Below are positions 6,672 to 40,800 of a stretch of DNA of 64,000 nucleotides, in pieces; within the stretch, counting starts at the first letter, position 1; each line of letters begins with the position of its first letter. The translations under genes were made by a program, and so were the position numbers. The stretch is taken from the IMG/VR virus record IMGVR_UViG_3300009506_000013, positions 1 through 64,000 of that record; one strand, given 5' to 3'. This stretch comes from a virus. The notes beneath the pieces were generated by a model that worked only from the letters and a program-made list of their open reading frames with translations, was not told where the DNA came from and did no database searches.

Positions 6672-6729
6672 TACATCTCCCCACGAAAGTGAAGAGGCCG
6701 GATTGCTCCGGCCCCCTTTTAATGCACCG

Positions 6730-7110: not shown

Positions 7111-7202
7111 CGTTTACTCCTCCAGAACAACAGTATCTCTACTGTTCATGTTTGTGCCCTATTAAATAGAACACCCACCACACCGCAGTGCGATAGACCG
7201 TA

Positions 7203-7876: not shown

Positions 7877-8211
7877 CTCTTTATCCCTGTCAGCTTTATC
7901 AGCCCAGTAGAAATAAGCGCCAGCATCTCCTCATCTCTAATGGAACGGCCCTCTAAAAGCCAACGTACACATCGCCAAAGATGATGTGGAGGAATAGGAA
8001 CACCTTCTGAATCTGCGGTCTTCGTTATCCTGTGATAGATATACTCGCACCGTCTACACAATACCCCATGGTCATAAAGCGGAATAATTGGATCGCGCAA
8101 TTCGGAAGGATTTTTCTTTTGATGGTAATGCTGGACGTATTGGCCCCCGTATAAATCCCGCTTTCCACAACCAATACATTCCTTCATAGTCTTAATTGCT
8201 CTTTTCCGCAT
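7873..8211 (-). CDS. hypothetical protein (CxxC...H...CxxC, HNH-like spacing)
   Basis: 112 aa with CIGC...HYH...LCRRCE. Confidence 0.55.
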   Translation of the reverse strand: MRKRAIKTMKECIGCGKRDLYGGQYVQHYHQKKNPSELRDPIIPLYDHGVLCRRCEYIYHRITKTADSEGVPIPPHHLWRCVRWLLEGRSIRDEEMLALISTGLIKLTGIKR

Positions 8212-8212
8212 G

Positions 8213-8794: not shown

Positions 8795-8812
8795 CCATTA
8801 AAGAATAGCCCG

Positions 8813-9712: not shown

Positions 9713-9733
9713 ATTACATCTCCCTGTTGCTGG

Positions 9734-20250: not shown

Positions 20251-21984
20251 TTAGAACGGGCAAGCATCATCACTCACTGCCTTATCCGCATCGACATAAT
20301 CTCTTCCCCAATCGCTCTGGTCGATGGGTCCGCTGTTCGCTCCTTTCCCCAATATAACATCGATGATACTACTTTTCCCGGCCGCAATTTGGGCCAAGAC
20401 AACGTCCATACTATTTTGTAACACGAGATGCGTCACGAGCACCTTATGAGTTTGGCCGATCCGGTGGGAGCGGTCTGCCGCTTGGTTCATCCGCTCTGGC
20501 ACGACATCCTCTTCCACAAACAGCACATGCCATGCGGACGTAAGGTTCAGCCCTACACCCGCCGCCTGTATACTCCCGAAGAAAGGAAGCATTGAAGGAT
20601 CGCCGTTGTATTGGTCGATGATCGGTTGCCGCTTCTTTGCTGGTGTCGGCCCGTATACGAGCGCAGATGGCTGGAACTCCCGGTGTAGCCTCTCCAAGAC
20701 ATGGTGGTGGTGCGCGAATACTAACATCTTATGTGGATCGTCGGTGAGTGTCTCTTTAAGATATTGGATGGCGTATGGGATCTTGAGGTCAGCCAGCTCC
20801 CGCCTCTGCCGGCTATACTCTTCAAAAGAGATGGTAACCTGAGAGTCTAGCTCCCCCACGAGCTTGCGGAACTCCGCCGCATTTCCGGCCTCTCTAGCTG
20901 TTTTTAAGGCCTTCCTGATAGAATCTGTTGCCTTCCGGAAATGATCCACCTCTCTGGCCAGCTCGCGGGCCAATTTTGGGCTTTCTACAGGCACTTCAAG
21001 GATCTGATACCGCTTATCGGGCAGGTCCAGGTCCACCTCATCCTTTGTCCTTCGGATCATCACCGACTTCCGGAGCAATTCCTGAAACTGCTCTTCGTTG
21101 GATGACCCGCTAAAATCCCAGCCATATCCGTTGTGTGTCGCTCCGCAAAACGTCTGCGCAAACCACCAAAAGCTTGGCCAGGACTTCGGATCCAGCCAAT
21201 GGAGCACCCCGAACATCTCCACCGGACGGTTCTCAATCGGCGAACCACTCAGCGCCGATTTATACCGCGCCTTCAAAGGGGCAAAGGCCTCTTCATTTTT
21301 CGGGTTGTCCTTCTTTGGCTCATATCCTAGCACCATCTTGGTCCGCATGGCTTTAGGGTTTTTGATAAATTGAGCCTCATCAGACACAATAAGATCCCAC
21401 GAGACAGAGTCCAGCCGAAACTTATGCCTGTCGAGGATATCATAATTGATGATAATGATTTGAGCTGCTGGCCAATCGCTCCCCCAACAGATCCCGACAC
21501 TCAAAGGCCGGACAAGCCAAGTCTTCAGCTCATTCTCCCAGTTGACCTTGAGACTGGACTTAGTTATGATCAGAACTCTCTCAATAGTAGGATCGGCGTT
21601 GATAAGACCGATAGCCTGGATGGTCTTCCCCAAGCCCATGTCATCGGCGATGTAGCTATTCTTATGTTCTAGCTGCCACTGGATGCCGGCCTTCTGGTAT
21701 CCGAAATACTCTTCACCCTCTGGAGCTGGTAAAGCCCAGTTGGAATCTGTAGCGGATGATTTGGCCAGGTTGGCCTCTCTCTTCTTAATAACATTCGCCA
21801 GCATCTCCCGGCACCGTGGCGTGGCGTATTGGGCTAGTATTGCGGCGTGTTCCGGATTGGTAGTTGCCCAATGGTTGGGCACTATCCGCTTCCAGACAAA
21901 CTGAGCGCCCTTAGGCACTAGGCGCTCAGCATACGCACAATAACAGACAAACGCCTGGTATCGGTCTGAATAATCTAATTTCAT
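20251..21984 (-). CDS. SNF2/HARP-like SF2 helicase
   Basis: ADDMGLGKT, DEAQ, SGSP, GVGLNL, QAADRSHRIGQ. Confidence 0.92.
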   Translation of the reverse strand: MKLDYSDRYQAFVCYCAYAERLVPKGAQFVWKRIVPNHWATTNPEHAAILAQYATPRCREMLANVIKKREANLAKSSATDSNWALPAPEGEEYFGYQKAGIQWQLEHKNSYIADDMGLGKTIQAIGLINADPTIERVLIITKSSLKVNWENELKTWLVRPLSVGICWGSDWPAAQIIIINYDILDRHKFRLDSVSWDLIVSDEAQFIKNPKAMRTKMVLGYEPKKDNPKNEEAFAPLKARYKSALSGSPIENRPVEMFGVLHWLDPKSWPSFWWFAQTFCGATHNGYGWDFSGSSNEEQFQELLRKSVMIRRTKDEVDLDLPDKRYQILEVPVESPKLARELAREVDHFRKATDSIRKALKTAREAGNAAEFRKLVGELDSQVTISFEEYSRQRRELADLKIPYAIQYLKETLTDDPHKMLVFAHHHHVLERLHREFQPSALVYGPTPAKKRQPIIDQYNGDPSMLPFFGSIQAAGVGLNLTSAWHVLFVEEDVVPERMNQAADRSHRIGQTHKVLVTHLVLQNSMDVVLAQIAAGKSSIIDVILGKGANSGPIDQSDWGRDYVDADKAVSDDACPF

Positions 21985-22514
21985 ATGGACATTCTCCTTA
22001 TTAGATTATCCATTCGGCGTAGAACTTCTGTTTGCAGTTTTGGCGGAATGAAATGCTTCTTTACTTCTTGGAACATCTGGCTGCTAAGCCACACACCCTT
22101 CGAGTCCTTTTCCTTCAACAACTGATACTCTTGGAACTCTGCGGCGGTGATGGTTATGCTGTTTGCTACGCGGGCACCCTTCGGTGTTGCCGCCTTCTCC
22201 GCATCATCCTTATTAAAACGGATCGCCGGAGGTGGCTGAACCTCTTCCTTATCAGTCTTCAGGTTCTTAATAAGGAAGTCCACAATACCTTTGACGGATG
22301 GATTGGTGTACTTGTGCCGTTGAAGCCGGCAAGTCCAGGTTACCACCATATCATCCCTGTCGAAAGTAAAGTTCATGTTAATTTGGAGCGGCTCCATTTT
22401 CGCACTCCAGATCCGGTCCCAGTACTGGCCGACAAAATAACCCCGCCGCCCCAGCTCCTTGCGGATCTCTTTTTGCAACCTTGCCTTCTTTTCCCCTTGC
22501 GACATAGGTCCCAT
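21981..22514 (-). CDS. hypothetical protein
   Basis: 177 aa with an AAAGGAGA RBS. Confidence 0.7.
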   Translation of the reverse strand: MGPMSQGEKKARLQKEIRKELGRRGYFVGQYWDRIWSAKMEPLQINMNFTFDRDDMVVTWTCRLQRHKYTNPSVKGIVDFLIKNLKTDKEEVQPPPAIRFNKDDAEKAATPKGARVANSITITAAEFQEYQLLKEKDSKGVWLSSQMFQEVKKHFIPPKLQTEVLRRMDNLIRRMSI

Positions 22515-22704
22515 GTTTATCTCCTTTCGCTGTCCTGTTTGCTAACATCTTATCCCCTAAACTTTGGTGGGGTGAAGGATCGCTGTGCCTTCTTGGAGTT
22601 CACGCAACTCCCTGCCGCCCCACCACCGGCAGAATGCGCTTTCCTAGTCACTCAGGAGAGCACTTTGGCCCTTCGAGCTTTAGGCTCGTCAGGCCCACAA
22701 TTGT

Positions 22705-22777
22705 CTGGACTTGCGACCAGTAGCCCAATCCTCTGGGCTAGCGCATTAAGGCCGGATCGCTCCGGCCCCGCTCTGCT
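22705..22777 (-). ncRNA. twister ribozyme R1 (P5-opened permutation; T1 CGC/GCG variant)
   Basis: AGCA-GAGCG-P1(GGGCCGGA GCGA UCCGGCCU)-UAA-UGC-GCU-P3-A-P4(CUGG UCGCAAGU CCAG). Confidence 0.88.
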
Positions 22778-23090
22778 ATGCTACATCCTCTTCCCACTCC
22801 TCTTCCTCTTCCTTACTGGGGTTGATCCCGGCATTACAGCTCCGGCACAACAGCTCCAGCTCCCCGTTCTCATAGTCCCTCTCATAGCGGACCATCCGTG
22901 ACCACCGGGACAAATCCCGGCAGGACCAATCCCGCCCGTTGGGGTGGTGAAATTCTAACTTCCTTTTTTTACCACACTCTTCACAGCACCCGCCCATCTT
23001 TATGATTAAGGCTTTCCGCCTCAGTTTGTAGGCTTTGACGTGATTCAGAGTTTTTCTTCGGCTCCTTTTCTTCCGGACTTCCTCTGTCAT
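22776..23090 (-). CDS. HNH endonuclease-like small protein
   Basis: CEECG...LEFHH...LLCRSCN; stop codon overlaps R1. Confidence 0.7.
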   Translation of the reverse strand: MTEEVRKKRSRRKTLNHVKAYKLRRKALIIKMGGCCEECGKKRKLEFHHPNGRDWSCRDLSRWSRMVRYERDYENGELELLCRSCNAGINPSKEEEEEWEEDVA

Positions 23091-23147
23091 CTCGTTTCTC
23101 CCTTCCAGTATTTTACCCCAGTTTTTAACTGGATCATAGCTAAAAAT

Positions 23148-23221
23148 CTGGACTTGTGACCAGTGGCCGGGACAACCCCAGCCAGCGCATTAAGGCCGGA
23201 TCGCTCCGGCCCCACTCTGCT
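23148..23221 (-). ncRNA. twister ribozyme R2
   Basis: Full consensus; T1 CAC/GUG. Confidence 0.88.
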
Positions 23222-23279
23222 AATTTTCTATGCCCATAACCTTTTCAATCTGACTCCCCGCTTTCCCCTATCAAACCTC

Positions 23280-23711
23280 CTATCCATATATCCGGTCAGC
23301 CAAGCACTCCCTCCACAACATTTCTGGGATGTCTTCCTTCCGGAAGTATGCTTTGACCCTTGGATCAGTTAATAACAACCCTTCCGCCACATCTGGACAA
23401 GCATCCTGTAATCGGGAATCATCATACCCGTCTGCCTTAAGATCCGCCCGGCACTGGCTACAGATCTTATTCAGCTGGCGCTCTGTATATGGCTTTACCT
23501 TTGGGGCTGAGGTATTCACCTTGAACGGCCTTTCCTTCTCCTTTATCCGGATGTAGTCTGGATATAGGATACCGGCATCGCTTTGTATCCTTATTTTATA
23601 GGCCACAAAACCACCCCGCCTTCCAAGCTCAACCTTCTCCACTACGGTCCCGATTATACAGGTGTTCTTATCTATTCTGAACCGGTCCCTCTTTCCTATC
23701 TTTGCTACCAT
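23280..23711 (-). CDS. hypothetical early protein
   Basis: AAAGGAGA RBS directly after R3. Confidence 0.7.
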   Translation of the reverse strand: MVAKIGKRDRFRIDKNTCIIGTVVEKVELGRRGGFVAYKIRIQSDAGILYPDYIRIKEKERPFKVNTSAPKVKPYTERQLNKICSQCRADLKADGYDDSRLQDACPDVAEGLLLTDPRVKAYFRKEDIPEMLWRECLADRIYG

Positions 23712-23725
23712 TTTGTTTCTCCTTT

Positions 23726-23797
23726 CTGGACTTGCGACCAGTAGCCCAACCGTTGGGCTAGCGCATTAAGGCCAGGTTGCCCTGGCCCCGCTCTGCT
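23726..23797 (-). ncRNA. twister ribozyme R3
   Basis: P1 variant GGCCAGG-GCAA-CCUGGCC; T1 CGC/GCG. Confidence 0.88.
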
Positions 23798-24026
23798 ATA
23801 AGAGTTTTGATAAAGGTGAACGCCGAACACGGACCGCACGAGCGCGGTGTATGAACTGACTACCTTCATACTTCACAATCACCCGTCCGCATCGCCCACA
23901 ATTCGCTACACGAGAGGCAGGCATACTACCAACATCCACCCGGTTTTTCTGCCCACAGTAGGGGCACTGCCGGATCTTAATACATTCCATGTTAGTATCC
24001 TCCACCAGAAGCACATTTTGGACCAA
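23796..24026 (-). CDS. Zn-ribbon protein (thioredoxin-2 N-terminal-like CxxC...CGRC)
   Basis: CPYCGQKNRV...CGRCG; stop codon overlaps R3. Confidence 0.6.
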   Translation of the reverse strand: MVQNVLLVEDTNMECIKIRQCPYCGQKNRVDVGSMPASRVANCGRCGRVIVKYEGSQFIHRARAVRVRRSPLSKLL

Positions 24027-24432
24027 TCCCGGCCTTTACAGACTCCGGAGTTGTTAACAACCTACCACATACGCAGCACCGCCCGCAGTGATAGAAGTTG
24101 ATCTTGGTTGGTATAGAACCTTTAATCAAGTGACCGTACCACCACCGGAAGGCAACAGCCGCTTTCGAGTCTTCGCTCATCTTCTTTTTAGAGTGGCGAT
24201 ATTCGCCGCCCTTAATAAGACCCATGAATGAATAATCGGAAGTGTTGTCCGGACCTCGAAGCAAGCTGACCCAAAACAGATCCTCTTCCTCAGTCTTTAT
24301 TGCCTTTGATATCCGATAGGTGAAACGATTCCCGGTGTCAGGATTCTCAATGGTAAAATAAGCATTCCCGCCAAAGATGAATTTTTTCTGCTCCTCTATT
24401 TCGAAGAGCTGGGCAATCGGTAGAGGCTCCAC
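23992..24432 (-). CDS. DUF6011-like Zn-finger protein
   Basis: C-terminal CCVCGRLLTTPESVKAGIGPKC. Confidence 0.75.
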   Translation of the reverse strand: MEPLPIAQLFEIEEQKKFIFGGNAYFTIENPDTGNRFTYRISKAIKTEEEDLFWVSLLRGPDNTSDYSFMGLIKGGEYRHSKKKMSEDSKAAVAFRWWYGHLIKGSIPTKINFYHCGRCCVCGRLLTTPESVKAGIGPKCASGGGY

Positions 24433-24647
24433 TAGTCACCTCCCAGTTCATCATCTGCGAACAGACCATCATCTGCGAACAGACCATCATCATCGTCATG
24501 GTCTTCAACATCGCCCACGCCAAACTGATCGCGAATTGCATCCTGTAACGGGTTTTTACAGCGCCCGCAAATAGCAGTCTGAACCTTCGCCTCATCCACT
24601 CTATTCTTCACCTGACACGCATCGCACTTAACAGTCATATTATCCAT
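24432..24647 (-). CDS. Zn-ribbon protein with acidic tail
   Basis: CDACQVKNRV...CGRC and a DDGLFA tandem repeat; start reassigned to MDNM after the RBS following R4. Confidence 0.65.
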   Translation of the reverse strand: MDNMTVKCDACQVKNRVDEAKVQTAICGRCKNPLQDAIRDQFGVGDVEDHDDDDGLFADDGLFADDELGGD

Positions 24648-24663
24648 TTTTATCTCCTTTATA

Positions 24664-24734
24664 CCAGACTTGTGACTGGTCTTGGGACAATCCCAAGGCG
24701 CATTAAGGCCGGATCGCTCCGGCCCCACTCTGCT
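24664..24734 (-). ncRNA. twister ribozyme R4
   Basis: P4 shows a compensatory swap (CCAG...CUGG instead of CUGG...CCAG). Confidence 0.88.
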
Positions 24735-25072
24735 TATAGGTTGTTTAGTTCTGCTTCGGTAGCGGTGATGGCTTCCCGGTCAGGATTATCAGCCATCAAC
24801 TGCCTTTCGAGCTTGGCCTTAAGGTTCTTCAGATCCGTGGAATAACCACCCGCCTGTAACGAACTCATGAACAGCCGGACATTGGACAGAAAGAACTCAC
24901 CCGTGCGGCCCCGGTCATCGACTGCCTGAACCTTTACCACTCCCTCTTCAATCCAAGCCGCCACGATCCTTGCGGGCCACGCTACCTTGTAGTCATTAAA
25001 AGCATGTTCGATCCGCCACGCCGGACAGATGAACTGTTCTAAAAGGTTGTTTGATAATGATCCTCGTGCCAT
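24734..25072 (-). CDS. hypothetical early protein
   Basis: AAGGAGA RBS; stop codon overlaps R4. Confidence 0.7.
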   Translation of the reverse strand: MARGSLSNNLLEQFICPAWRIEHAFNDYKVAWPARIVAAWIEEGVVKVQAVDDRGRTGEFFLSNVRLFMSSLQAGGYSTDLKNLKAKLERQLMADNPDREAITATEAELNNL

Positions 25073-25091
25073 TTTGTTTCTCCTTATTAGT

Positions 25092-25142
25092 CTGAACTTG
25101 TGACCAACGAATGGGGCCAGGGAAGCCTGACCCCGCTCTGCT
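25092..25142 (-). ncRNA. degenerate twister-like copy R5
   Basis: Keeps AGCAGAGCG, a P1-like hairpin and UGGUCACAAGUUCAG; lacks the UAA cleavage loop and P3. Confidence 0.55.
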
Positions 25143-25350
25143 AGCTGTCTTCCCTGCGTTCTGCTTCCCGCAGGTCATCGGCCATATTAACAATGTTCTC
25201 GCACAGTTCAATCAGCTTATCCCGATATTCCTTTTCAGACTTACTGATATCATGATCCGGCCCCTCTTCAATAGCTTCTTCAATAGCCGATTCACAATCA
25301 AGTAAATCACGATAGGTGTTCTCAAATCGACAATAGCTCATATTGCTCAT
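25141..25350 (-). CDS. small acidic phage protein (MSYCRFENT type)
   Basis: Start reassigned to MSNMSYCRFENT after the AGGAGA RBS. Confidence 0.75.
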   Translation of the reverse strand: MSNMSYCRFENTYRDLLDCESAIEEAIEEGPDHDISKSEKEYRDKLIELCENIVNMADDLREAERREDS

Positions 25351-25366
25351 TTTCTTATCTCCTATT

Positions 25367-25440
25367 CTGGACTTGTGACCAGTAGCCTCCACCATAGAGG
25401 CTAGCGCATTAAGGCCGGATCGCTCCGGCCCCACTCTGCT
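25367..25440 (-). ncRNA. twister ribozyme R6
   Basis: Full consensus; P3 AGCCUC..GAGGCU. Confidence 0.88.
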
Positions 25441-25963
25441 AGATGATAGGCTTCACTCTATTCGCCCACACCGTGATAAGATCCTTGGGTGCACGGCCAG
25501 TGATACGGGCCAGATGACCACCAAAGGCCAGGTCCAACATTTTCTTCGGGTTGAGTACAGTTACCTTCCCGGTGGTCTTATTAATCCGAACCACCTGGGA
25601 CTTTGACCACATCCCATTACTCAGGACTTCAACCATCTGCCCAACCCGCAACCTCTCTATATAGCCAAAGTTTTTAAGGTATTCAGCAGCCTTCTCTTTG
25701 TGCTCTTCGCGGTGAGCTTGGCGCTCCTCCTTGAATTCATTTCCTGCCGCATACAGCACTTTTCTCTGCTTCGGCGTCAACTTCGCGGGTTTCAACATAT
25801 GCTCTGGAACAGTGTACATTCCTTCCTCTTCCGATTTTACTTCAAAACGATAGACAACAGGCTGATATCGCTTACTGACTTTCCGCATCCCCATAACTAC
25901 TCCAACAACCGTCTTGTGTTTGCGGGAAGATGTAAACTGAACTGCGTCACCGATATTAAACAT
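25439..25963 (-). CDS. hypothetical protein with SH3/KOW-like beta-barrel patterns
   Basis: FNIGDAVQF and LRVGQMVEV patterns; RBS after R7. Confidence 0.7.
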   Translation of the reverse strand: MFNIGDAVQFTSSRKHKTVVGVVMGMRKVSKRYQPVVYRFEVKSEEEGMYTVPEHMLKPAKLTPKQRKVLYAAGNEFKEERQAHREEHKEKAAEYLKNFGYIERLRVGQMVEVLSNGMWSKSQVVRINKTTGKVTVLNPKKMLDLAFGGHLARITGRAPKDLITVWANRVKPII

Positions 25964-25977
25964 GGTATTTCTCCTTT

Positions 25978-26051
25978 CTGGACTTGCGACCAGTAGACTC
26001 CACCATGGAGTCTAGCGCATTAAGGCCGGATCGCTCCGGCCCCGCTCTGCT
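25978..26051 (-). ncRNA. twister ribozyme R7
   Basis: T1 CGC/GCG; P3 AGACUCC..GGAGUCU. Confidence 0.88.
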
Positions 26052-26334
26052 AGTCTTCTTTACACTCAGGATAATCAACCGCTTTAAATACAGGGAACGT
26101 CCGCTGAGTCACGGCATTCTGGACTTCCTTTAAAACACTAAACAGAGCCTCAAGCTCTTGCTCCTGTTCCTTACCACGAACACGGATTTCACAGTTAAAA
26201 CAAGCCTCACCGTTGCTTCCTGATACTTGAAGCTCCCCGCGATAGCCATACACCAGACTTAACAGGCCCTTCACATGTTCCACAATTTGGGCATCTGTCG
26301 CTTCTGTTACCGTCTCAACCGAATAGTCTTTCAT
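26050..26334 (-). CDS. hypothetical early protein
   Basis: RBS after R8; stop codon overlaps R7. Confidence 0.7.
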   Translation of the reverse strand: MKDYSVETVTEATDAQIVEHVKGLLSLVYGYRGELQVSGSNGEACFNCEIRVRGKEQEQELEALFSVLKEVQNAVTQRTFPVFKAVDYPECKED

Positions 26335-26352
26335 TTCTTATCTCCTTTTATT

Positions 26353-26424
26353 CTGGACTTGTGACCAGTGGCTCCCCCATGGAGCCAGCGCATTAAGGCC
26401 GGATCGCTCCGGCCCCACTCTGCT
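26353..26424 (-). ncRNA. twister ribozyme R8
   Basis: Full consensus; P3 GGCUCC..GGAGCC. Confidence 0.88.
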
Positions 26425-26632
26425 AAGATGCCCGCTGAAGGATTATCTCTCTTGCCTCTATAGCGCGGACATTGGTTATCTCGTTTTGTAGCTCTAAAAG
26501 ATACGTTTGCTCAACTCCTGAAGCCTCCGCATAGTTCATCAGGCCTTGGATATAGGCTTCGTAAACACGGACCATCCGTTTCAGAGTCTTCTCTTCCTCT
26601 ACCACTATTCTCTTCACGTTGTTATTAGCCAT
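26423..26632 (-). CDS. small helical hypothetical protein
   Basis: RBS after R9; stop codon overlaps R8. Confidence 0.7.
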   Translation of the reverse strand: MANNNVKRIVVEEEKTLKRMVRVYEAYIQGLMNYAEASGVEQTYLLELQNEITNVRAIEAREIILQRAS

Positions 26633-26644
26633 TTCTTTTCTCCT

Positions 26645-26722
26645 CTGGACTTGTGACCAGTACCAGGGACAATCCCCGGTAGCGCATTAAGCTGGAGTCT
26701 TAAGACTCCAGCCCACTCTGCT
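26645..26722 (-). ncRNA. twister ribozyme R9 (P1 overlaps coding sequence)
   Basis: P1 is GGCUGGAGUCU/AGACUCCAGCU, a different sequence that still pairs fully. Confidence 0.85.
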
Positions 26723-27149
26723 GTAGCGTCCAGATAGCAACTAAATCAGCCATCCGGCTTGACTCTTCCATAGTCAACAGCCCATCCGCAAACATCCTTT
26801 CCCATTTGCGAAACGCAGGGCCGTGACCCTCGTCAGCGCCATCCTTATACTTGCCCAGCCGAACGGGTTGGGCACTGTTGCAAATAAACCCGTGGACCAG
26901 CTCGTGCCACAGGATGCTTCGGACCTCTTTCAAATACCGCCCATATTTGAGCGGCTTTTCAAAGAACTTATTCAGGGCGATTGTCCGGGCCGCAACGTCA
27001 TACTGACCGAAGACCACGCCCGGCAACCCGGCCTGATTAACTGTTATTGGGAACTGCTGGAAGGATACTTTCACCACACAGCCGGAGCCATTCAAGTATC
27101 CTTCATCCATCTCCTTCACCAACTGGAAAAGCAAAGATTCTATTTGCAT
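26700..27149 (-). CDS. SprT-like zinc metalloprotease
   Basis: HELVH (HExxH) and downstream GHGPAFRK. Confidence 0.8.
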   Translation of the reverse strand: MQIESLLFQLVKEMDEGYLNGSGCVVKVSFQQFPITVNQAGLPGVVFGQYDVAARTIALNKFFEKPLKYGRYLKEVRSILWHELVHGFICNSAQPVRLGKYKDGADEGHGPAFRKWERMFADGLLTMEESSRMADLVAIWTLQQSGLES

Positions 27150-27802
27150 CGCGCATACCCTGCCTTCCCGCCGATTTTAACCTTGCGGATAATTCCAAGT
27201 CTCACAAGGTGCCCAGCGACCATCTTCAAACGGCCAGCTGGATTCGAGCTTTTAATGTTGGGAATGAGTTCAGCAATAGCGTCATCCAGTGTAATAGAAG
27301 GATATTTGACCAGTAATTCCGCGCAAAACCTTATAGAGGTATTTGGCAACCAGGCCGGAAGACCATCCGGACCAATCGGAGGTATTGCGGAAGTCCCACC
27401 ACCCGTCTTGGCCTTCTTTGCTTTCGCCGTTGACGTTGTAGTAGTCTGTTTGTTTTCGAGCTTATCAATATAAGATTGGATCTGCGGCGGATTCAGCGCC
27501 ACCGCAAACCGTTCCATATACTTCAAAGCCATCCGCAAACTTGTTTCCTTCTCTTCCGGAAACTGTGTGCCCAAGGCGCGGGCACGGCATTTACCTGCGA
27601 TGTTCCAGATTTTAACAGCATCATCGGGCAGGTACTTCACACCGGGATTCTGTCGCTGTAATCTCTGAAGACTCCCACAAATCGGGTCCATCACGGATAT
27701 CGCCTGGATTAATAGGCTTGTCCGAAGACTTAAGTCATCGTGGGCACGGGAAAATGCCGCGTAAATCTTTTCAATCATTTTCCTTGGATTTGCTTTCGCC
27801 AT
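27140..27802 (-). CDS. hypothetical early protein
   Basis: 220 aa with an RBS after R10; overlaps the SprT-like gene. Confidence 0.7.
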   Translation of the reverse strand: MAKANPRKMIEKIYAAFSRAHDDLSLRTSLLIQAISVMDPICGSLQRLQRQNPGVKYLPDDAVKIWNIAGKCRARALGTQFPEEKETSLRMALKYMERFAVALNPPQIQSYIDKLENKQTTTTSTAKAKKAKTGGGTSAIPPIGPDGLPAWLPNTSIRFCAELLVKYPSITLDDAIAELIPNIKSSNPAGRLKMVAGHLVRLGIIRKVKIGGKAGYARCK

Positions 27803-27814
27803 TTCTTTTCTCCT

Positions 27815-27888
27815 CTGGACTTGTGACCAGTGGCCGGGACAACCCCGACCAGCGCATTAAGGCCGGATCGCTCCGGCCCCACTCTGCT
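27815..27888 (-). ncRNA. twister ribozyme R10
   Basis: Full consensus. Confidence 0.88.
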
Positions 27889-28607
27889 TATTCGCTCCCC
27901 GTCCCCAACAGCGGACGGTTCGCAACCGCAAGAAATTTCGCCTCAAACTCAGCCTCACTCGTGATCTCCTCATGAACTCCCCCGGTGATTGCGCTCAGGG
28001 TTTTGAGGTTATCACTACCATTTCGGCCATACCAGCTGTCTTCGCGGCCAATAAAAATGGTGTCAATAATAACGCCAGCCGTTTTGGCTTGTTCGGCGGC
28101 ATCGAGGGCAACATCATAGTCATGCATATCGCCATCCGATGTAAGGATAATTCTGGGCGTATAATCTTTGTTCTTCTTCAGAAGAGTCAACGCCGCACGG
28201 ATACCCTTTCCAGCATAAGTCCCGTTTCCATTCGCATACAGCGCACGAACAGCATCCTTGATCTCATCCAGGTTCGATGAGCCTCTCAGAGGTATTCGAG
28301 TGTTTTTCCCGAACTCAACAACGCCAATCTTCATGGACAGGGCCTTTTCGCCAATCCGTTCATTCGCATACTTCTCAACAACCTTCTTTTGAAGGTCAAC
28401 CTTCCGTGAACCGCTGTAGCGGTCTTCGCCCATCCCATCATTCATCGAATAGGAAGCATCCAACACGAAACAGAGATATTGGAAATTATCAAAGAAGTCA
28501 TTCAGATCCATACTACCAGCACTCAGGATCAAATCCTCTTCTTTTTTCGTCATGGAAGTTGCGGTTGTTACGATAGAAGTGTTTTTGGAAGTTTTGTTAT
28601 CAGACAT
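27888..28607 (-). CDS. von Willebrand factor A domain protein
   Basis: MIDAS DASYSM, GT, ILTSDG; start reassigned to MSDNK after the RBS. Confidence 0.85.
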   Translation of the reverse strand: MSDNKTSKNTSIVTTATSMTKKEEDLILSAGSMDLNDFFDNFQYLCFVLDASYSMNDGMGEDRYSGSRKVDLQKKVVEKYANERIGEKALSMKIGVVEFGKNTRIPLRGSSNLDEIKDAVRALYANGNGTYAGKGIRAALTLLKKNKDYTPRIILTSDGDMHDYDVALDAAEQAKTAGVIIDTIFIGREDSWYGRNGSDNLKTLSAITGGVHEEITSEAEFEAKFLAVANRPLLGTGSE

Positions 28608-28628
28608 GGTATTTCTCCTTTTTAAAAA

Positions 28629-28703
28629 CTGGACTTGTGACCAGTTAGATTCCACCATGGAATCTAGCGCATTAAGGCCGGATCGCTCCGGCCCCACTCT
28701 GCT
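28629..28703 (-). ncRNA. twister ribozyme R11
   Basis: Full consensus; P3 AGAUUCC..GGAAUCU. Confidence 0.88.
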
Positions 28704-28893
28704 AATTTTCTATCCAAGCAACGCTTTTCGCATTCAATAGTTCCAGTCTCACCTCTTCCAGCATTTGGATATCGGCCTCGTGTTTCCTCTTGCTTCGAGC
28801 TGAGAAAGAAAGTTTGTCAATCCGGTCTTGGATAGCGTCAACCACCGCCAACTGCTGGCGGATACTCAGAAAGTGTACCATTAAGTCTTTCAT
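28702..28893 (-). CDS. small hypothetical protein
   Basis: RBS after R12; stop codon overlaps R11. Confidence 0.7.
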   Translation of the reverse strand: MKDLMVHFLSIRQQLAVVDAIQDRIDKLSFSARSKRKHEADIQMLEEVRLELLNAKSVAWIEN

Positions 28894-28905
28894 TTTTTAT
28901 CTCCT

Positions 28906-28979
28906 CTGGACTTGTGACCAGTGGCCGGGACAACCCCAGCCAGCGCATTAAGGCCGGATCGCTCCGGCCCCACTCTGCT
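28906..28979 (-). ncRNA. twister ribozyme R12
   Basis: Identical to R2 and R15. Confidence 0.88.
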
Positions 28980-29278
28980 TAAGGCTCATAAAATCTAACA
29001 TCGAAATCATTACAAGCCCTCATGAAATCCAGTATCGTCATCGTGTCAGATAACCGGCGCAGGAAGGCATAACCGTTCATTCCTTCCACCGTAGAATACT
29101 GGTCAAGATCATTCTCGTAGATATGGACGCCATTGGCGTCAACCACGATCCCATAAGCCTTCTCAACATCTTGCGAGATTAGAACCAACCCGACCAACGG
29201 ATCAGAACCATCACCAAAACTCTCAGCACTCGAAAAGGCATCCCAATCTTGCTTATCAAACTTTCTAAGATTAATCAT
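28979..29278 (-). CDS. hypothetical early protein
   Basis: RBS after R13; stop codon overlaps R12. Confidence 0.7.
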   Translation of the reverse strand: MINLRKFDKQDWDAFSSAESFGDGSDPLVGLVLISQDVEKAYGIVVDANGVHIYENDLDQYSTVEGMNGYAFLRRLSDTMTILDFMRACNDFDVRFYEP

Positions 29279-29290
29279 TTTGTTTCTCCT

Positions 29291-29364
29291 CTGGACTTGT
29301 GACCAGTAGCCTCCACCATAGAGGCTAGCGCATTAAGGCCGGATCGCTCCGGCCCCACTCTGCT
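29291..29364 (-). ncRNA. twister ribozyme R13
   Basis: Identical to R6. Confidence 0.88.
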
Positions 29365-29614
29365 AGTCTTCCAACTCATCCAACCCATCGAGGCAAGCCT
29401 CAACTTCATACAACCGCTGAGCCTCTTTCGCGGATATCTTCACGGAGGAAACAACCAGCCAGTTGTTATCGTCCAAGACATCCCCAACCTGTGTAACCAC
29501 GGGGCAATTCTTTCCATCGAACACTTTCTTCATGGCGGCATTTAACTCATCCACCGGAATTTGATCTGCCCAATCCCAAAATATTAACTCAGTCTTTACT
29601 GTGTTCTTTTTCAT
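29363..29614 (-). CDS. hypothetical early protein
   Basis: Start reassigned to MKKNTV after the GAGGAGA RBS. Confidence 0.7.
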   Translation of the reverse strand: MKKNTVKTELIFWDWADQIPVDELNAAMKKVFDGKNCPVVTQVGDVLDDNNWLVVSSVKISAKEAQRLYEVEACLDGLDELED

Positions 29615-29627
29615 TTTCTTTTCTCCT

Positions 29628-29699
29628 CTGGACTTGTGACCAGTGGCTCCCCCATGGAGCCAGCGCATTAAGGCCGGATCGCTCCGGCCCCACTCTGCT
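29628..29699 (-). ncRNA. twister ribozyme R14
   Basis: Identical to R8. Confidence 0.88.
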
Positions 29700-29931
29700 A
29701 ACCGTTCCAAACCTCAACGCCAGTAACCGTCACTTTCATATTAATTCCGGCATCGGCCACGAACTTTTTGACCAGTTCCTTCGCAACATCCTTGTTTCGA
29801 GCCTCCACAAGGATCTCATCCAGCGTATCCACGCAACCGCCAAGAATATAGGTACAACGGTATTTTTTCGGCGTGACCTTATGGTGTGGTTGCCGACGCA
29901 TCGAAGTCCCCCATCCATTGTTTCTTCCCAT
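29698..29931 (-). CDS. hypothetical early protein
   Basis: Start reassigned to MGRNNG after the RBS. Confidence 0.7.
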   Translation of the reverse strand: MGRNNGWGTSMRRQPHHKVTPKKYRCTYILGGCVDTLDEILVEARNKDVAKELVKKFVADAGINMKVTVTGVEVWNG

Positions 29932-29947
29932 TTTCTTATCTCCTATT

Positions 29948-30021
29948 CTGGACTTGTGACCAGTGGCCGGGACAACCCCAGCCAGCGCATTAAGGCCGGA
30001 TCGCTCCGGCCCCACTCTGCT
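29948..30021 (-). ncRNA. twister ribozyme R15
   Basis: Identical to R2 and R12. Confidence 0.88.
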
Positions 30022-30223
30022 AGTAACAATCTATTCCTTTCACCACGCATCCGGTGTTCAGGCCCTTTACCTCTTCAACCAGCGCCTCCCAGTACTTTCT
30101 AGCTGGCGCCTCTCTTTTATATTTACGGTTCCAACTCTCAAACGCGGGCCTGCGATTAAGAGTACAAAAAATCTCAAAGCCATCTTTGGTTTCGAAAAAC
30201 GAAATTCTAATTGTATCGCTCAT
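30020..30223 (-). CDS. hypothetical early protein (first gene of the array)
   Basis: Start reassigned to MSDTIR after the RBS. Confidence 0.7.
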   Translation of the reverse strand: MSDTIRISFFETKDGFEIFCTLNRRPAFESWNRKYKREAPARKYWEALVEEVKGLNTGCVVKGIDCY

Positions 30224-30235
30224 GGTGTTTCTCCT

Positions 30236-30314
30236 CTGGACTTGTGACCAGTAGCCCAACCGCTGGGCTAGCGCATTAAACGGATGGCAATGCACTTACC
30301 ATCCGCCACTCTGC
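30236..30314 (-). ncRNA. twister ribozyme R16 (5'-most copy)
   Basis: Unique P1 GCGGAUGGUAA/UUGCCAUCCGU; the rest matches consensus. Confidence 0.85.
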
Positions 30315-30847
30315 AAATTTTGGAGAATTTTCCGATCTCTTTTAGCAAAATACCGTATCGGTCACCCGCGACAATCGAATCACACTCGATTACTGAGCCA
30401 CCCCGCTCAATTGGGACTTGCGATATTTCACCGTCTGTTTCACCGGGTGTCTTATCCACCCTGCCCACAACCTACTTTGTTCAGCTCTGGGTCCGCCTCA
30501 CCTCCTCCGGATTTTAGCGGTAGCACCTTGGGCTCCCCGTTTTTCGGATCTTTGCCATCAGGTCTGGCCTTTTGTTTTTTCTCCGGTGGCCTTCGATTTT
30601 CATCAACCGGATTTTCCGCTGGCTCCTTCGGTTCCGCCTTCGGTCGGCTTCTTTAATTCCGCTCCCCCTGACCTTGGGCTTTCCCTTCCGCCTTTCTTTT
30701 TCGCCCTTCCGGTTTCCCCCAGTCATGCCGATGTCGGCCTCAGTTGGGTTCCACGTTTATAGGGTGTACCGCTTTTCGCTTCCCCGCCCCCCCTTTCTTC
30801 TTTCTACTCTATTTAACTTTATCATCTTACCTTATCCTTTCTTACTG
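30315..30847 (-). ncRNA. putative ~530 nt structured leader or ncRNA
   Basis: Lies between the promoter and R16; purine-rich, many short hairpins, no convincing RBS-led ORF. Confidence 0.35.
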
Positions 30848-30853
30848 TACTTA

Positions 30854-30914
30854 AATATAATGGAAAATGAAGGGATAGTCTACATTTTTTTTAACTTTTT
30901 TTGATTTTTTTTTT
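30854..30914 (-). promoter_or_regulatory. strong sigma70-type early promoter with UP element
   Basis: -35 TAGACT (30877-30882), 17 bp spacer, -10 TATATT (30854-30859), upstream A-tracts. Confidence 0.75.
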
Positions 30915-30973
30915 AAGTGGAGGAAAATCAATCATTTATGAGGACGATTTTTTTGTTTTTTCCGGCATTTAGG

Positions 30974-31228
30974 CTATTTTTTACCCCCATCAACTGCTAA
31001 TTTCCTATGCTTTTTTGATGGTCTTCCCCGGTGTAAATTCCGGGCTTTTAGGGCCAGCACCTGCCGCATATCGTACAGCCGAATATGGCCATCATCGAAC
31101 ACAGGCACCAAATACCCCTTTAAAACATGGCTATCGATGGCGCTTGCTGAACAGCCGTATATCTCTGCCGCAGTCTTCCGGCTCACCAGCCGATTAATAT
31201 CAAACATCCTTCTCTTGAATCTCCTCAC
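30974..31228 (-). CDS. helix-turn-helix DNA-binding protein (excisionase/MerR-like)
   Basis: LVSRKTAAEIYGCS...G.L......RLY pattern. Confidence 0.7.
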   Translation of the reverse strand: MRRFKRRMFDINRLVSRKTAAEIYGCSASAIDSHVLKGYLVPVFDDGHIRLYDMRQVLALKARNLHRGRPSKKHRKLAVDGGKK

Positions 31229-32097
31229 CTCAAAGCCTCCAAAATCTCCCGCTCATCCGTTTCAGCTGGATCCTTCCCCGATACCTGAACAATCCTGATC
31301 GGCCTTCGATGAAAGGATAACAGCTGTCTCATTTTTAACGCATCCAATTCCGCTTCCCGGTCCAGCATCACCACGAACCGGTCAAAGCCGGATACCAACG
31401 CCAATTTCTCGTGGCTGAGAACCTTCCCGCCGATAGCGACAGCCGCCCAATCAGCAAACATTCTATCATGCGCCAACGCACGATCAACCGCCAACTTATC
31501 GGCCCAACCTTCTACAAGCACCAAGGTGGAGGCGATGCCTGCCGCCTGGTCATAACCAAACAGCGCCTCAGCTGCCTTCGCTCCTACAGGGTGAAGAACC
31601 TTCCGCTCAGCTCTTCCTGTCCAATCCCGCGCAACGAAGCTCACCAACTCCCCGTCCAGCGTAATGGGTATTATCACCCTGTTTCTATATCTCCCAGTCG
31701 GACAAAATCCTATGGAATATTTTTGAATCTGGCCTACTGTGATCCTCCGGCCCAGCAGGTAGCGCATGGCTATCCCGGCAATAATACCGCGCCGGGGGAG
31801 TGCGAAATATTCCGAAGGCAAGCAAACATCCTTCTCTTTCTCCGGCTTCCACATTCCTCCCGGCAACTCGCCGGAAAGCATCCGCGCCTCACGGTAGCTG
31901 ATACGATTTAGCTTTACAAACAGCCCTGCTAACCGGCCCCGCTTCCCGCAACCGTGGCAGATGTAAACTTTCTTCCGTACATTAACGCAACAAGACGGTG
32001 TGCGCTCGTTGTGCCACGGGCAGAGTATGGTCCATTCTCCTCCTCCACTATGGCGTGCGTTTGGCTGTCCTGCGATAATCCGCTCTGCTTGATTCAT
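31225..32097 (-). CDS. DNA primase (CHC2 zinc finger plus TOPRIM)
   Basis: CPWH..RTPS...CHGCG, RVIIPI, VEG..D, D.E, KDP. Confidence 0.9.
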   Translation of the reverse strand: MNQAERIIAGQPNARHSGGGEWTILCPWHNERTPSCCVNVRKKVYICHGCGKRGRLAGLFVKLNRISYREARMLSGELPGGMWKPEKEKDVCLPSEYFALPRRGIIAGIAMRYLLGRRITVGQIQKYSIGFCPTGRYRNRVIIPITLDGELVSFVARDWTGRAERKVLHPVGAKAAEALFGYDQAAGIASTLVLVEGWADKLAVDRALAHDRMFADWAAVAIGGKVLSHEKLALVSGFDRFVVMLDREAELDALKMRQLLSFHRRPIRIVQVSGKDPAETDEREILEALR

Positions 32098-37805: not shown

Positions 37806-40800
37806 CTATAGAAAATATGCCATTACAGTAATTATAAATGATCTCGAAGAACCGCATGAACACTGAGCCCGTCTACTACTATCCAACCCTATAACCCCGG
37901 TAACACCGATTGCAGCGGATGTGCAATATCCTCTGATAGAATTATATCCGCCTTGCCCATATTCATAAATGTTATATAACGGAGTCCCTGTACCACTACC
38001 AATTATGCAACTCAATGACGCTTTATTATACCCTGCCGGAACTATACTACTTAAATCCACAGTCACCGGCGTACTACTTACAGCACCATTCGCCCAATCA
38101 CCTGAAGCGGAAGATCCCAGCGCAACCCCGACTGCCGCCTCAGTCATGTGGCGTAAAATAATTTCAGCATCATTAATTGCCGCCTCTAATACAGCAAGAT
38201 CATTTATTGATGTGCTAACAACCTTATCAGCATTTACATTCCCATCCGCCGCTGCGACGGTATACAGCATTACCTGACCGACTTCATCGAATACTTCTAC
38301 TCGTACACAATCAATCTCCGCCTCATTTGCGGCTACTGCATCATTATAATTGAGAATAAAAATCGGAAGCAAATAACGTGTATTTGTTACTGCAGTCTGT
38401 GGATTGGTCGGATCATCAAGCTCAGTGCCGCCAACTCCCGTACCTTCCCCAGACATATAACCAACAACATCAGTCCACGTGTCTATCGTCCACCCGTACA
38501 TATCCAACGCACTAACCGGATACCTGGAACCCAAGCTATTATAATTGGAATCAACACATAGGAAACCGACATAAATTTTCTGGTTTCCGCTTGCACCTGT
38601 AACCGTTCTTTTCGCCTTTGCAGAGATCCTATAAAGCCAATTCTTATTATATGGAATATAAAATCCGGCTAAATATCGGCCTACACAACCCGCGCAACTA
38701 ATCACATACTTGCCTGTCACCCCTCCTGTGGTTCTTGTAGGTGTGCCATTATATGTGGAATATTGTACCCAATAGGAAAGTACATTTGGATTTTCAAAGG
38801 ATTCTACAAATAATGTCTGACCGGGAATCTTTGCATAGTCAATTTGTTCCAATGGCACATCAGTCAGTGTGCCGTCACTATTCAAACTAGCATCTGTCTT
38901 ATCTACTGAAGAATTGACCTGAGAGGCCGTATCCGTTCCCACATTGGATGTATTATTGGAGGTGTTGTCCCCTGTTACATCCGCATTATCATCTGGCTTT
39001 CCAGTTCCCGTTACACCATCCCAAGTAGACGTTAGTGCTGATGCGTCCGCTATAGACTTGGCCAGATCAGATACCTTATTTAGCAATGCCGTCCGCGCAT
39101 CATAGTAATCAGTAAACTTGCCGCGAAATGTTGAACTTGCGATAGTAGTGGTAGTGCTAAGCTGGGCATCCGATATCCACAGCGGTATACCGCTTGACCA
39201 TGTTCCGTTGTTTAGATAGTCTGCCAAGGCTTGGAAGGCATTATCGTATGCGATCTTTTCTGTAGTAATACTATAAGCTGTAGCCAGCGAATCTAGGCCA
39301 CTAACTTCTGCCGCAATCCCTTCCCATTCCCGGCGCACCGACAGCTTCTCCACAGGCGTGAACTTGCTATCTGCGGCAATGTCTGCTAATAGAGCATTTG
39401 CAGCATCAGCATCATCTTGAGCATCAGAAGCGGCTTGACTTGCGGCACTCGCAGCGGCACTCGCAGCAGCGGCATCATCTGCCGCATCAGCAGCATCTTG
39501 TGCGGCGGCGGCGGCATTGTTAATTGCAGTAGAAGCGGTGGCGGCGGCTGAGTCTACTGCATTGTCAATAACTTCTGCGATCTTGTTCCGGAGTGCTTCG
39601 CGGGTATCATAATAGGCCTTCCATTTATTCCGGAATGTTTCAGCGACAATCGTGGTGGTAGTGTCTAGCTGGGCATCCGATATCCACAGCGGAACATCCA
39701 TTACAATCATCTCGTCAGACTTTGACCCCTCCTCTGCTCCAGTATCATATGCACTAATTGCCGCATAATATATGCCTGCGGAAGTGAACTGGTGCGTATA
39801 GGAAGTAACATTGCCTACATCTATGGGGGAGCCATAACTGCCGGGTGATGTCCCGATGTACAGATAGTAACCATCCAAATCCGGTTCAGTATTTGGCAGC
39901 CATACAAAGTCTACATATGTTCCTGCCGCAATTTGCCCTGTCCACACTCCGTTGTTTAGATAGTCTGCGAGTGCTTGGAAGGCAGCATCCATTGCATTCT
40001 TCTCATCCGTTATCCCATAGGATGATGCCTCTGCATTCAGCCGATACCATTCCTGTATGATCTTTTCCCACTCCTTGCGGGCCGCCAACTTCTCTACTGG
40101 AGTGAACTTCGCATCAGATGCGATGTCTGATAACAAGGCGTTCGCGGCGGCTACATCCCCATATACCGTGGCAGAATCACTCGATCTATACAAACGGGTG
40201 AGCGTTCCGCCATCATTATAGCCTATGACATAATAACTTGAAGAGGGAAGAGAAGAGCTGGTACCGAAGACATCAGGGTTGGCTGGATCCCAATATATCC
40301 AGGCACTATTGGTGTTCCCGTCTGTTATGGCATATCGGACATCTTTGTAGACTACAACAACCCCGGTCCACGATACATACCCAGCAGAAGGGTCATCATC
40401 CGCAAACCCCGTCGCCCCTTCAATCACCTCGAACTGTGGCGGGCTGTCGACAACCTTGGGAGTGTAAGACTCCGTGGAGGTTCCCCACTCCGTTCCAACT
40501 ACCGCTGAACATAACAGCGTCATCTCGTGTCTATCGTTGTCGTATATCCTATGGGCGATTTGCTCCACAAAATAATCGCCGCTCAACCCGTCTTCCGTCA
40601 CCACAGTGATTCTATCAGATATGTCCCGCGTCTGTGCTTCGGCCAAGTGGGCAGCGGCGGCATTACAGTCCAGCGTTATCATCAAAGCATTTCGAGGCTC
40701 TTTATACACGGACAAATAGTAGTCACAGAAGGCCTGAGCCTCTGCTTGGGAAGAGATGAACTTGGCCGGTATTCTCCAGTCATTCTTCCCGTGGTCGCTG

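Follow-up and report, generated by a model that had tools for sequence, protein, structure and literature searches.

Why should a phage place a copy of one small structured element between almost every two genes of an operon, and are these elements ribozymes that cut the message which they punctuate? The question is raised by a 7.6-kb block of the window analysed here, a 64-kb stretch of the IMG/VR record IMGVR_UViG_3300009506_000013, in which an earlier note, made from the letters of the DNA, had listed 16 twister-ribozyme-like elements starting between positions 22705 and 30236. The record (81,032 bp, rated 100% complete) comes from an uncultivated tailed phage, and the block encodes 18 small open reading frames (ORFs; 63-239 aa, referred to as g1 to g18), which are co-oriented on the minus strand and have a strong Shine-Dalgarno site each. 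In the current analysis the elements, numbered R1 to R16 in the order of transcription, have been identified as type-P5 twister ribozymes by sequence and predicted fold, their catalysis being predicted. They are most likely active ribozymes that segment the phage message.

Identification of the ribozymes

A scan of the whole window with Rfam cmscan at the gathering threshold of the family Twister-P5 (RF02684, clan CL00120; 37.6 bits) has yielded 14 matches scoring 44.6-51.4 bits, all of them on the minus strand. A permissive scan of the positions 15000-40000 adds the copy at 30236-30315 with 37.4 bits (E 1.3e-4). This is the scan of the minus strand that had been suggested in the earlier note, and it places 14 copies above the threshold and one 0.2 bit below it. 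The 58-position Rfam model is matched over its full length by all the 15 intact copies. Twister-P5 is the top-scoring member of its clan at every site, lower overlapping matches of the clan being dropped by the tool, and the order of the strands is that of the P5 permutation, with P1 closed by a loop and the termini situated between P4 and the 5' strand of P2. The assignment to a twister opened at P5, made in the earlier note, is upheld by both observations, and all 16 start coordinates given there are exact.

Only one ribozyme class is found in the array. No other RNA family was detected at E<=1 in the positions 15000-40000, and other ribozyme classes are absent at the gathering threshold from the window and also from the last 17 kb of the genome. 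The whole genome of 81,032 bp has 15 Twister-P5 matches and none of them lies outside the array; the family has no match in any of 14 control genomes. The 64-kb window has 16 occurrences of the motif of the loop L4, all of them on the minus strand and none on the plus strand. The intact copies are 71-80 nt long and occupy 1,111 of the 7,611 nt of the block. Some of them are identical to one another (R2, R5 and R15; R3 and R9; R4 and R11), so that 11 of the 15 are distinct.

Stems, pseudoknots and covariation

The twister class was defined by Roth et al. 2014, as reviewed in PMC5408937. The review describes the stems P1, P2 and P4, the optional stems P3 and P5 and two pseudoknots, namely T1 between L1 and L4 and T2 between the strand after P2 and L4. 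Conserved nucleotides, about 10 in number, are found in L1 and L4, the bond that is cut lies by P1 and joins a U of lower conservation to a conserved A, and there are permutations opened at P1, P3 or P5. Compared with Rfam Twister-P5, the elements of the window have the same stems, pseudoknots, conserved nucleotides of L1 and L4, U-A step and P5 ends. They differ in that P2 has 3 bp here and 4 in the model, the position after UGC being absent; in that position 1 is here the A of the upstream stop codon and is flagged as a non-pair; and in that T1 reads GUG/CAC or GCG/CGC where the consensus has GgG/CcC, with one pair of T2 being G.U. In the three alignments considered, all the conserved positions match the Rfam consensus but three, which are the absent position after UGC and two positively scored substitutions, one at the middle base of T1 and the other a U for C after CAAG. 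All 15 copies have the motif that spans the cleavage site, P2 and T2, in the order U, two A's, 3' strand of P2 and G-C.

Twenty-six copies, taken from this phage and a relative, have served to build a covariance model of our own, with which 36 copies, 29 of them distinct, from the window and nine other loci have been aligned. In this alignment, which is fitted to the nested stems and favours them, with the pseudoknots lying outside the model, 98.4% of the 675 cells pair and both partners are changed in 16 of the 24 pairs. On each of the five covariation measures the alignment is equalled by none of 500 shuffles, and slid controls pair in 28-39% of the cells. Changes on both sides are seen in all eight pairs of P1, all four pairs of P3 and three of the four pairs of P4. 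In R13 two pairs of P4 have changed on both sides (CCAG/CUGG, against CUGG/CCAG in the other copies).

The P2 of UGC/GCA proposed in the earlier note is never unpaired (100%; G-C, C-G and A-U in all the window copies), and to this extent the proposal stands. The stem hardly varies, so that covariation gives no proof of it and neither supports nor contradicts it. T1 is also paired in 100% of the sequences, and its middle pair is U-A in 23, C-G in 4 and G-C in 2 of the 29 distinct sequences, by which the CAC/GUG pairing put forward in the earlier note is borne out. An additional A-U middle pair and a doubly changed form occur in other phages, and all the 15 intact window copies have a Watson-Crick T1 in cis. 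T2 pairs in 98.3% and is invariant in the aligned set (G.U and C-G), which makes it compatible rather than proven; the copies of one related phage described below (G012) have an A at the G position of T2, compatible with an A-U pair. The minimum free energy (MFE) fold has the shape P2-P1-P3-P4 in all of the 10 intact copies folded, with z-scores of -2.9 to -4.9.

One copy of the array, R12x (25092..25142), situated between g12 and g13, is decayed and has no Rfam match at E<=1. Its 5' strand is retained, together with a hairpin resembling P1 and a loop resembling L4, but the cleavage site, P3 and the 3' strand of P2 are missing, in agreement with the word degenerate that the earlier note had used for it. 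It folds as a single hairpin and the middle position of its T1 would be a C.A mismatch. The joint loss of the cleavage site and of the T1 pairing is as expected if catalysis is selected.

The optional P3 hairpins present only a few recurring loop types, which are common to this phage, a related phage (G001, described below) and an unrelated metagenome contig. The comparison covers 22705-30315 of the window, 4717-10458 of the locus L068, and L096. The types are a three-base loop ending in GG and closed by A-U, and a UUG-type loop closed by G.U or A-U. They may represent a tertiary contact or a binding site.

Register with the genes and predicted pieces

The statement of the earlier note that there is roughly one element between each gene describes the locus well. 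Among the 17 junctions of the 18 small ORFs, 13 have an intact ribozyme, one has the decayed copy and three (g7/g8, g14/g15 and g15/g16) have none, and the array is flanked at both ends, with R1 preceding the first small ORF and R16 coming after the last one. Fourteen intact copies are situated downstream of an ORF, and 12 of them have their first 1-2 nt in common with the stop codon of that ORF; the exceptions are R8, where the stop is in the P1 loop, and R15, where it is 59 nt away. On the other side, 12-21 nt separate the end of P4 from the ATG in 13 of the 15 copies, and the Shine-Dalgarno site follows P4 after 1-10 nt. Position 1 is U and not A in the copies without an overlapping stop (R1 and several in G001), which indicates that the A at this position belongs to the stop codon.

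The overlap with the stop and the distance from P4 to the ATG imply that a predicted cut would damage neither neighbour: upstream of it the ORF would remain whole, stop codon included, and downstream the ribosome-binding site would be intact. The upstream 3' end is predicted to consist of the stop followed by about 30-38 nt that end in the P1 hairpin (-16 to -18 kcal/mol), and the downstream leader, of 54-66 nt, to be made up of P3, P4 and the ribosome-binding site. From this geometry, the predicted pieces are 276-1170 nt long, and 11 of them are monocistronic, two bicistronic and one tricistronic.

Proposed processing of the phage message

In the mechanism proposed here a long transcript would be made across the array, and each element of about 74 nt would fold into P2, a GC-rich P1 hairpin, P3, P4 and the two pseudoknots and would self-cleave at the U-A step that separates P1 from P2. 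Fifteen such cuts would give 14 defined RNAs (11 with one gene, two with two genes and one with three genes) in addition to a leader and a downstream remainder. Every piece would start with a 5' hydroxyl, followed by the P3 and P4 hairpins and the Shine-Dalgarno site, and its 3' end would comprise the stop of the upstream gene, the P1 hairpin and, at the terminus, a 2',3'-cyclic phosphate. The phage would be likely to benefit by the uncoupling of neighbouring genes in decay and translation and by standard, hairpin-capped messages. The self-cutting of the transcript into mostly single-gene RNAs, as visualised in the earlier note, is a plausible reading of the locus. The designation of the operon as early, also made there, is an assumption, the array being placed between the primase and DnaB genes and those of the helicase and polymerase.

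Such a process would be a protein-free counterpart of the processing of the early mRNA of phage T7, which is cut between the genes by the host protein RNase III, with hairpins at the new ends. RiboJ, an engineered hammerhead-based insulator, standardises the 5' end ahead of the ribosome-binding site. Both systems are similar to the present one in outcome and neither is homologous to these twisters.

Since the elements are co-oriented, complete, under selection for their fold and harmless to the neighbouring genes when cut, they are held to cut the transcript as it is made, and we infer that they do so in the infected cell. The presence of R1 before the first gene and of R16 after the last suggests that uniform ends are useful beyond the separation of genes. 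Perhaps half of the confidence placed in the segmentation of the message would extend to the protection of the ends, or insulation, as the benefit.

A number of points weigh against this proposal. The single long transcript across the array is an assumption, and the scans for promoters and terminators give results no better than those from shuffled sequences (11 against 10.4 and 11 against 10.2, respectively). The mean unpaired probability of the Shine-Dalgarno site in 14 units is 0.73 in the cut and 0.66 in the uncut form; accessibility being nearly equal, the folding lends no support to better translation after cleavage. A 5' hydroxyl is not always protective, and the product of the glmS ribozyme was reportedly found by Collins et al. 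in 2007 to be degraded by RNase J1 owing to its 5' hydroxyl. R1 is just under the Rfam threshold, and one copy, R12x, is dead. A search of sequencing runs for the stretch has listed none of RNA. Since the contigs of public DNA assemblies (runs X1-X3, window 21500-31500) end at the repeated ribozymes, the arrangement of the cassettes that are flanked by identical copies depends on the original assembly.

DNA of the phage is present at a marine-sediment site. Run X3, a soil metagenome of another study, has only short pieces identical to the window.

Arrays in related and other phages

The search of related phage genomes for the array, which had been suggested in the earlier note, has revealed arrays in two distant relatives, G001 (11 matches) and G012 (15), and also in G014 (9). 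In blastn no sequenced phage matches the array stretch, a search for related loci with the helicase has found none among sequenced phages, and tblastn against deposited phages gives identities of at most 37% for the helicase and at most 42% for the DUF6011 protein. Twister-P5 is absent from all four deposited phage records searched (three cultured, one metagenome-derived), and the control genomes in that search also gave no match. The same search gave matches in other genome sets, including the genome of this phage, G001, G012 and G014. At least 120 stretches of genome contigs match a short pattern, and among the matches listed none has a full twister when examined with a regular expression.

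A pattern for the sequence variant seen here has identified 67 stretches in IMG/VR, and our own model confirms twisters in 11 of these loci. Nine records behind the confirmed loci have only 1-3 matches each. The record G001 (67 kb, 84% complete) has 11 matches above the threshold within 5.7 kb. The primase, the array, an ORF of 180 aa and the helicase follow one another in G001 in the same order as in this phage, their proteins being 29-54% identical. Within the array of G001 are homologues of the gene g6, which encodes a von Willebrand factor A (VWA) domain, and of g7, g8, g10, g11, g14 and the DUF6011 gene, in a partly different order; the DUF6011 gene is the first in the array of G001 and is near the end in the window.

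A general P5 pattern matches at least 119 stretches in IMG/VR, and among the matches listed four more records have been followed. G012 (82.9 kb, 100% complete) has 15 matches over 9.4 kb, 12 of them above the threshold, in an array that is again placed between primase and helicase, and homologues of the VWA protein (42% identity), g7 (42%), g8 (35%), DUF6011 protein (43%) and helicase (38%), the overall range being 29-50%. No two of the 15 copies of G012 are the same, their pairwise identity being 54% on average and 23% at the lowest, and most are without P3. G014 (69.5 kb, 100% complete) has 9 matches with the same layout of stop, ribozyme and Shine-Dalgarno site as the window, and blastp has detected no homologue of the window proteins in it. 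Two further fragments have 7 and 6 matches. Arrays of 6-15 copies are thereby found in five records besides this phage. The layout of stop, ribozyme and Shine-Dalgarno site is also seen in a metagenome contig of 1,156 bp, which has three complete copies and, truncated by its start, the 3' end of one more.

The last copy in L096 (865-1008) and that in L425 (13707-13803; 30706-30802 of G012) have a long insertion in P1, the copies being 144 and 97 nt long, and are still recognised by the models.

The mean identity of the copies is 78% within this phage, 65% within G001 and 61% between the two. The higher identity within the genomes than between them suggests homogenisation of the copies. The copies diverge in their stems and keep the core, which argues that they have been maintained as ribozymes and not merely as repeats. 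From these comparisons of sequence, the array is an old and maintained trait of one phage group that recurs in others.

Homogenisation also bears on an alternative, according to which the elements are kept mainly as recombination joints for the swapping of cassettes, with the ribozyme and the ribosome-binding site forming a module of about 95 nt and cleavage being secondary. Such a role is compatible with the segmentation of the message, and as the main reason for the array it is improbable. Four of the 15 copies are exact repeats, and the identical copies are interleaved and not adjacent. The excess of identity within the genomes (78% and 65%) over that between them (61%) is consistent with joints of this kind, as are the reordering of the common genes in G001 and the ribozyme that separates g7 from g8 in G001 and G012, which are unsplit here. 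The 15 dissimilar copies of G012, however, offer too little homology for recombination (mean 54%, minimum 23%) and still keep the core, the stems and the pseudoknot, and the compensatory changes in the stems and in T1 speak for selection on the fold of the RNA, not on the identity of the DNA. The public contigs mentioned above have no joints, indels or alternative arrangements, which is poor evidence either way. A role in recombination is at most a side effect of ribozymes that would cut the message.

Other readings of the elements

A second alternative starts from the ends of the predicted pieces. Due to the P5 permutation each excised unit would start with the 3' half of one twister and end with the 5' half of the next, and the two ends could form P2 and T1 again and be joined by the reverse reaction or by a host ligase of RtcB type, giving circular or end-joined mRNAs. 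If true, this would be the natural counterpart of engineered circular RNAs flanked by ribozymes. Tornado is such an engineered system. P2 is compatible between all the window copies, and the predicted ends, a 5' hydroxyl and a 2',3'-cyclic phosphate, are substrates of RtcB (chemistry in PMC8782182). Of the 14 units, however, 9 would have a Watson-Crick T1 as the hybrid of their ends, 2 a wobble and 3 a mismatch. T1 covaries within a copy (15/15) but not between neighbours, which implies that selection acts on the ribozyme in cis, and the ends would be joined by no more than 3 + 3 base pairs. RtcB (PF01139) and RNA_ligase (PF09414) have no match in the phage genome, both controls being positive; such an enzyme may be available in the host. 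Circular or spliced products of clustered hammerheads were sought by Perreault et al. and none was found (PMC3088659). We regard circular messages as highly unlikely.

That the elements are only structured spacers (hairpins, pause sites or protein-binding sites), or conditional ribozymes held inactive, for instance by terminating ribosomes, appears equally remote: the stop codon is 7 nt before P1, so that a ribosome terminating there would occupy P2 and the T1 strand, the P3 loops have recurring short motifs across three phages which the ribozyme model does not need, and regulated cleavage was raised for phage hammerheads by Perreault et al. (PMC3088659), but the core agrees with the Rfam consensus in three alignments apart from one absent and two substituted positions, the 58-position model is fully matched, both pseudoknots are kept and T1 covaries, which is unnecessary for a mere hairpin, and the sole copy without a cleavage site has also lost the T1 pairing (C.A).

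Relation to known ribozyme arrangements

The segmentation of phage messages by ribozymes has been considered before for another class. In prophages multiple hammerheads often flank single genes or small groups of them (Perreault et al. 2011; PMC3088659). In that study three tandem hammerhead arrangements cleaved in vitro in polycistronic constructs of about 2 kb, and one of them in vivo, and the hypothesis was put forward that long phage transcripts are processed into mRNAs of single-gene or operon length. Those hammerheads and the present array have in common several ribozymes, in the orientation of the genes, flanking phage genes or short blocks of them. They differ in the ribozyme class, in number and in the kind of evidence, with up to three hammerheads per construct of about 2 kb and cleavage demonstrated there, and 15 twisters in 7.6 kb, held in a fixed register to stop codons and ribosome-binding sites and known from their sequence, here. 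A processing role was suggested for twister also in a 2019 review, which stated that more work is needed (PMC6765202). The novelty implied in the earlier note, which knew of no phage with a ribozyme between nearly every gene of an operon, consequently does not extend to the idea of processing, which has been in print since 2011 for hammerheads (PMC3088659) and was extended to twister in PMC6765202. No description of arrays of 10 or more twisters in one phage operon was found in the full-text literature searched, the primary twister papers and their supplements being outside its coverage.

Bacterial twisters and hammerheads show enrichment in the neighbourhood of phage genes and of one another, the reason being unknown according to Eckert et al. 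2023 (PMC10085705). The enrichment reported by Roth et al. 2014 and Weinberg et al. 2015, as summarised in PMC10085705 and PMC6765202, resembles the present locus in having twisters near other ribozymes in a phage-related context. As far as these summaries go, mixed classes and genes of Mu-like phages are involved there, in contrast to the single class in a replication-module operon of a group of phages of about 80 kb considered here. Self-cleaving ribozymes of RNA viruses (PMC13725137) likewise fill an intergenic spacer and cut few to tens of nucleotides before the next start codon. Those viruses are eukaryotic, the ribozymes are mostly hammerheads and the effect concerns cap-independent initiation, unlike the situation in this phage. 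The same 2026 paper set aside the ribozyme matches in DNA bacteriophages as already described (PMC13725137).

The array is a large and regular case of an arrangement that has been proposed for phages since 2011 and not a new kind of element. What the locus adds is scale, regularity and an evolutionary series, with a strict register, an internal dead copy, and homogenised as well as diverged arrays. The role of small self-cleaving ribozymes in bacteria and phages is still open according to the 2019 review (PMC6765202) and the 2023 paper (PMC10085705). The array and its relatives provide clean experimental material in this respect, with one class, 9-15 copies per genome and a fixed register; the decayed copy serves as an internal control, and the arrays are conserved across phages whose proteins are only 29-54% identical.

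Copies and genes in the order of transcription

All the ORFs called in the window (simple ORF calls) are on the minus strand, to which all the following coordinates refer, and no tRNA genes have been found in it. The order in the direction of transcription is head and tail genes, a DnaB-like helicase (33455-32094), a primase (31881-31225), the array, an ORF of 177 aa, a helicase (21984-20251), a DNA polymerase and SbcCD. The identity of the context as that of a phage is given by the matches to head, tail, DnaB, primase, helicase and polymerase.

The region upstream of R1 (30316-30760) is strongly purine-rich and includes an ORF of 70 aa with many Lys, Arg and Gly residues. In G001 purines likewise prevail over about 800 nt ahead of the first copy, and the words which the two phages have in common upstream of R1 fall in this purine-rich, coding-like stretch. 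No promoter-like site was found in 30316-30760, and no conserved word upstream of R1 is common with G012.

R1 (30236..30315; Rfam 37.4 bits, own model 65.2 bits; predicted cut at U 30278) precedes the first small gene and belongs to the leader. Its P1 is 12 bp long and its position 1 is a U, with no stop codon overlapping, and its MFE fold is P2-P1-P3-P4 with a z-score of -4.1. The genes that follow, g1 to g5 (28702..30223; 67, 77, 83, 99 and 63 aa), each have an AGGAG-type Shine-Dalgarno site and an ATG start, and each is alone between two ribozymes. No PHROG or Pfam family of note was found for them, and the predicted pieces are of 286, 322, 335, 385 and 276 nt. The ribozymes between them are R2 (29948..30021; 48.3 bits by Rfam, as are the scores given below; cut at U 29992), between g1 and g2, the first 2 nt of which are overlapped by the stop of g1; R3 (29628..29699; 49.4 bits; cut at U 29670), between g2 and g3; R4 (29291..29364; 48.8 bits; cut at U 29335), between g3 and g4; and R5 (28906..28979; 48.3 bits; cut at U 28950), between g4 and g5.

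R6 (28629..28703; 48.6 bits; cut at U 28674) separates g5 from g6, and R7 (27815..27888; 48.3 bits; cut at U 27859) separates g6 from g7. The protein encoded by g6 (27888..28607; 239 aa) contains the von Willebrand factor A domain (Pfam VWA, E 1e-12), and the gene is alone on a predicted piece of 815 nt; it has homologues in G001 (54% identity) and G012 (42%). The genes g7 and g8 (26700..27802) encode proteins of 220 aa, with no family, and of 149 aa, with a weak SprT-like match below the cut-off. They overlap, with no ribozyme between them, and would share a bicistronic piece of 1170 nt; in G001 and G012 a ribozyme separates their homologues.

The VWA gene and its two neighbours, g7 (220 aa, no family) and the weakly SprT-like g8, stay together in three related phages with 35-54% identity, always inside the array (26700-28607 of the window; L068, 20705-22785 of G001; L425, 23087-26318 of G012).

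R8 (26645..26722; 44.6 bits; cut at U 26689; fold z-score -4.9), between g8 and g9, has a P1 unlike that of the other copies, and the stop of g8 is inside the P1 loop, ending 22 nt into the element. The genes g9, g10 and g11 (25439..26632; 69, 94 and 174 aa) are each alone between two ribozymes, and homologues of g10 and g11 are present in G001. R9 (26353..26424; 49.4 bits; cut at U 26395) is between g9 and g10. R10 (25978..26051; 46.8 bits; cut at U 26022), between g10 and g11, has a compensatory C-G as the middle pair of T1.

R11 (25367..25440; 48.8 bits; cut at U 25411) lies between g11 and g12. The genes g12 (69 aa, phrog_8760) and g13 (112 aa), together at 24734..25350, are joined across the decayed copy and are predicted to form a bicistronic piece of 706 nt. 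R13 (24664..24734; cut at U 24705), between g13 and g14, has with 51.4 bits the best score of the window. The block of g14, g15 and g16 (23796..24647) encodes proteins of 71, 146 and 64 aa, of which the first and the third are zinc-ribbon-like, with matches below the cut-off, and the second belongs to DUF6011 (Pfam, E 1.1e-11). A match to phrog_20259 (E 1.3e-36) also falls within this block, which has no ribozymes between its genes and would be a tricistronic piece of 937 nt.

R14 (23726..23797; 47.5 bits; cut at U 23768), between g16 and g17, has a variant P1 and C-G as the middle pair of T1. The two last genes of the array, g17 (143 aa, no family) and g18 (104 aa, weakly HNH-like), at 22776..23711, are each alone between two ribozymes. 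R15 (23148..23221; 48.3 bits; cut at U 23192) is placed between them, with the stop of g17 59 nt upstream and the start of g18 57 nt downstream. R16 (22705..22777; 47.2 bits; cut at U 22748), after g18, also has C-G as the middle pair of T1, and the cut that the earlier note, under the name R1, had predicted between 22748 and 22747 coincides with its U-A step.

A stretch of 190 nt without ORFs (22515-22704) separates R16 from the next gene and has a fold somewhat more stable than that of shuffles (z-score -2.3). Only chance-level Rfam matches have been obtained for it at E<=10. The hammerhead-like look that part of it has by eye has been rejected, there being no Rfam match to it at E<=10.

On the minus strand at 37806-46957 the window also has two ORFs of 1383 and 1667 aa, which show weak matches only, to tail proteins or of tape-measure-like type.

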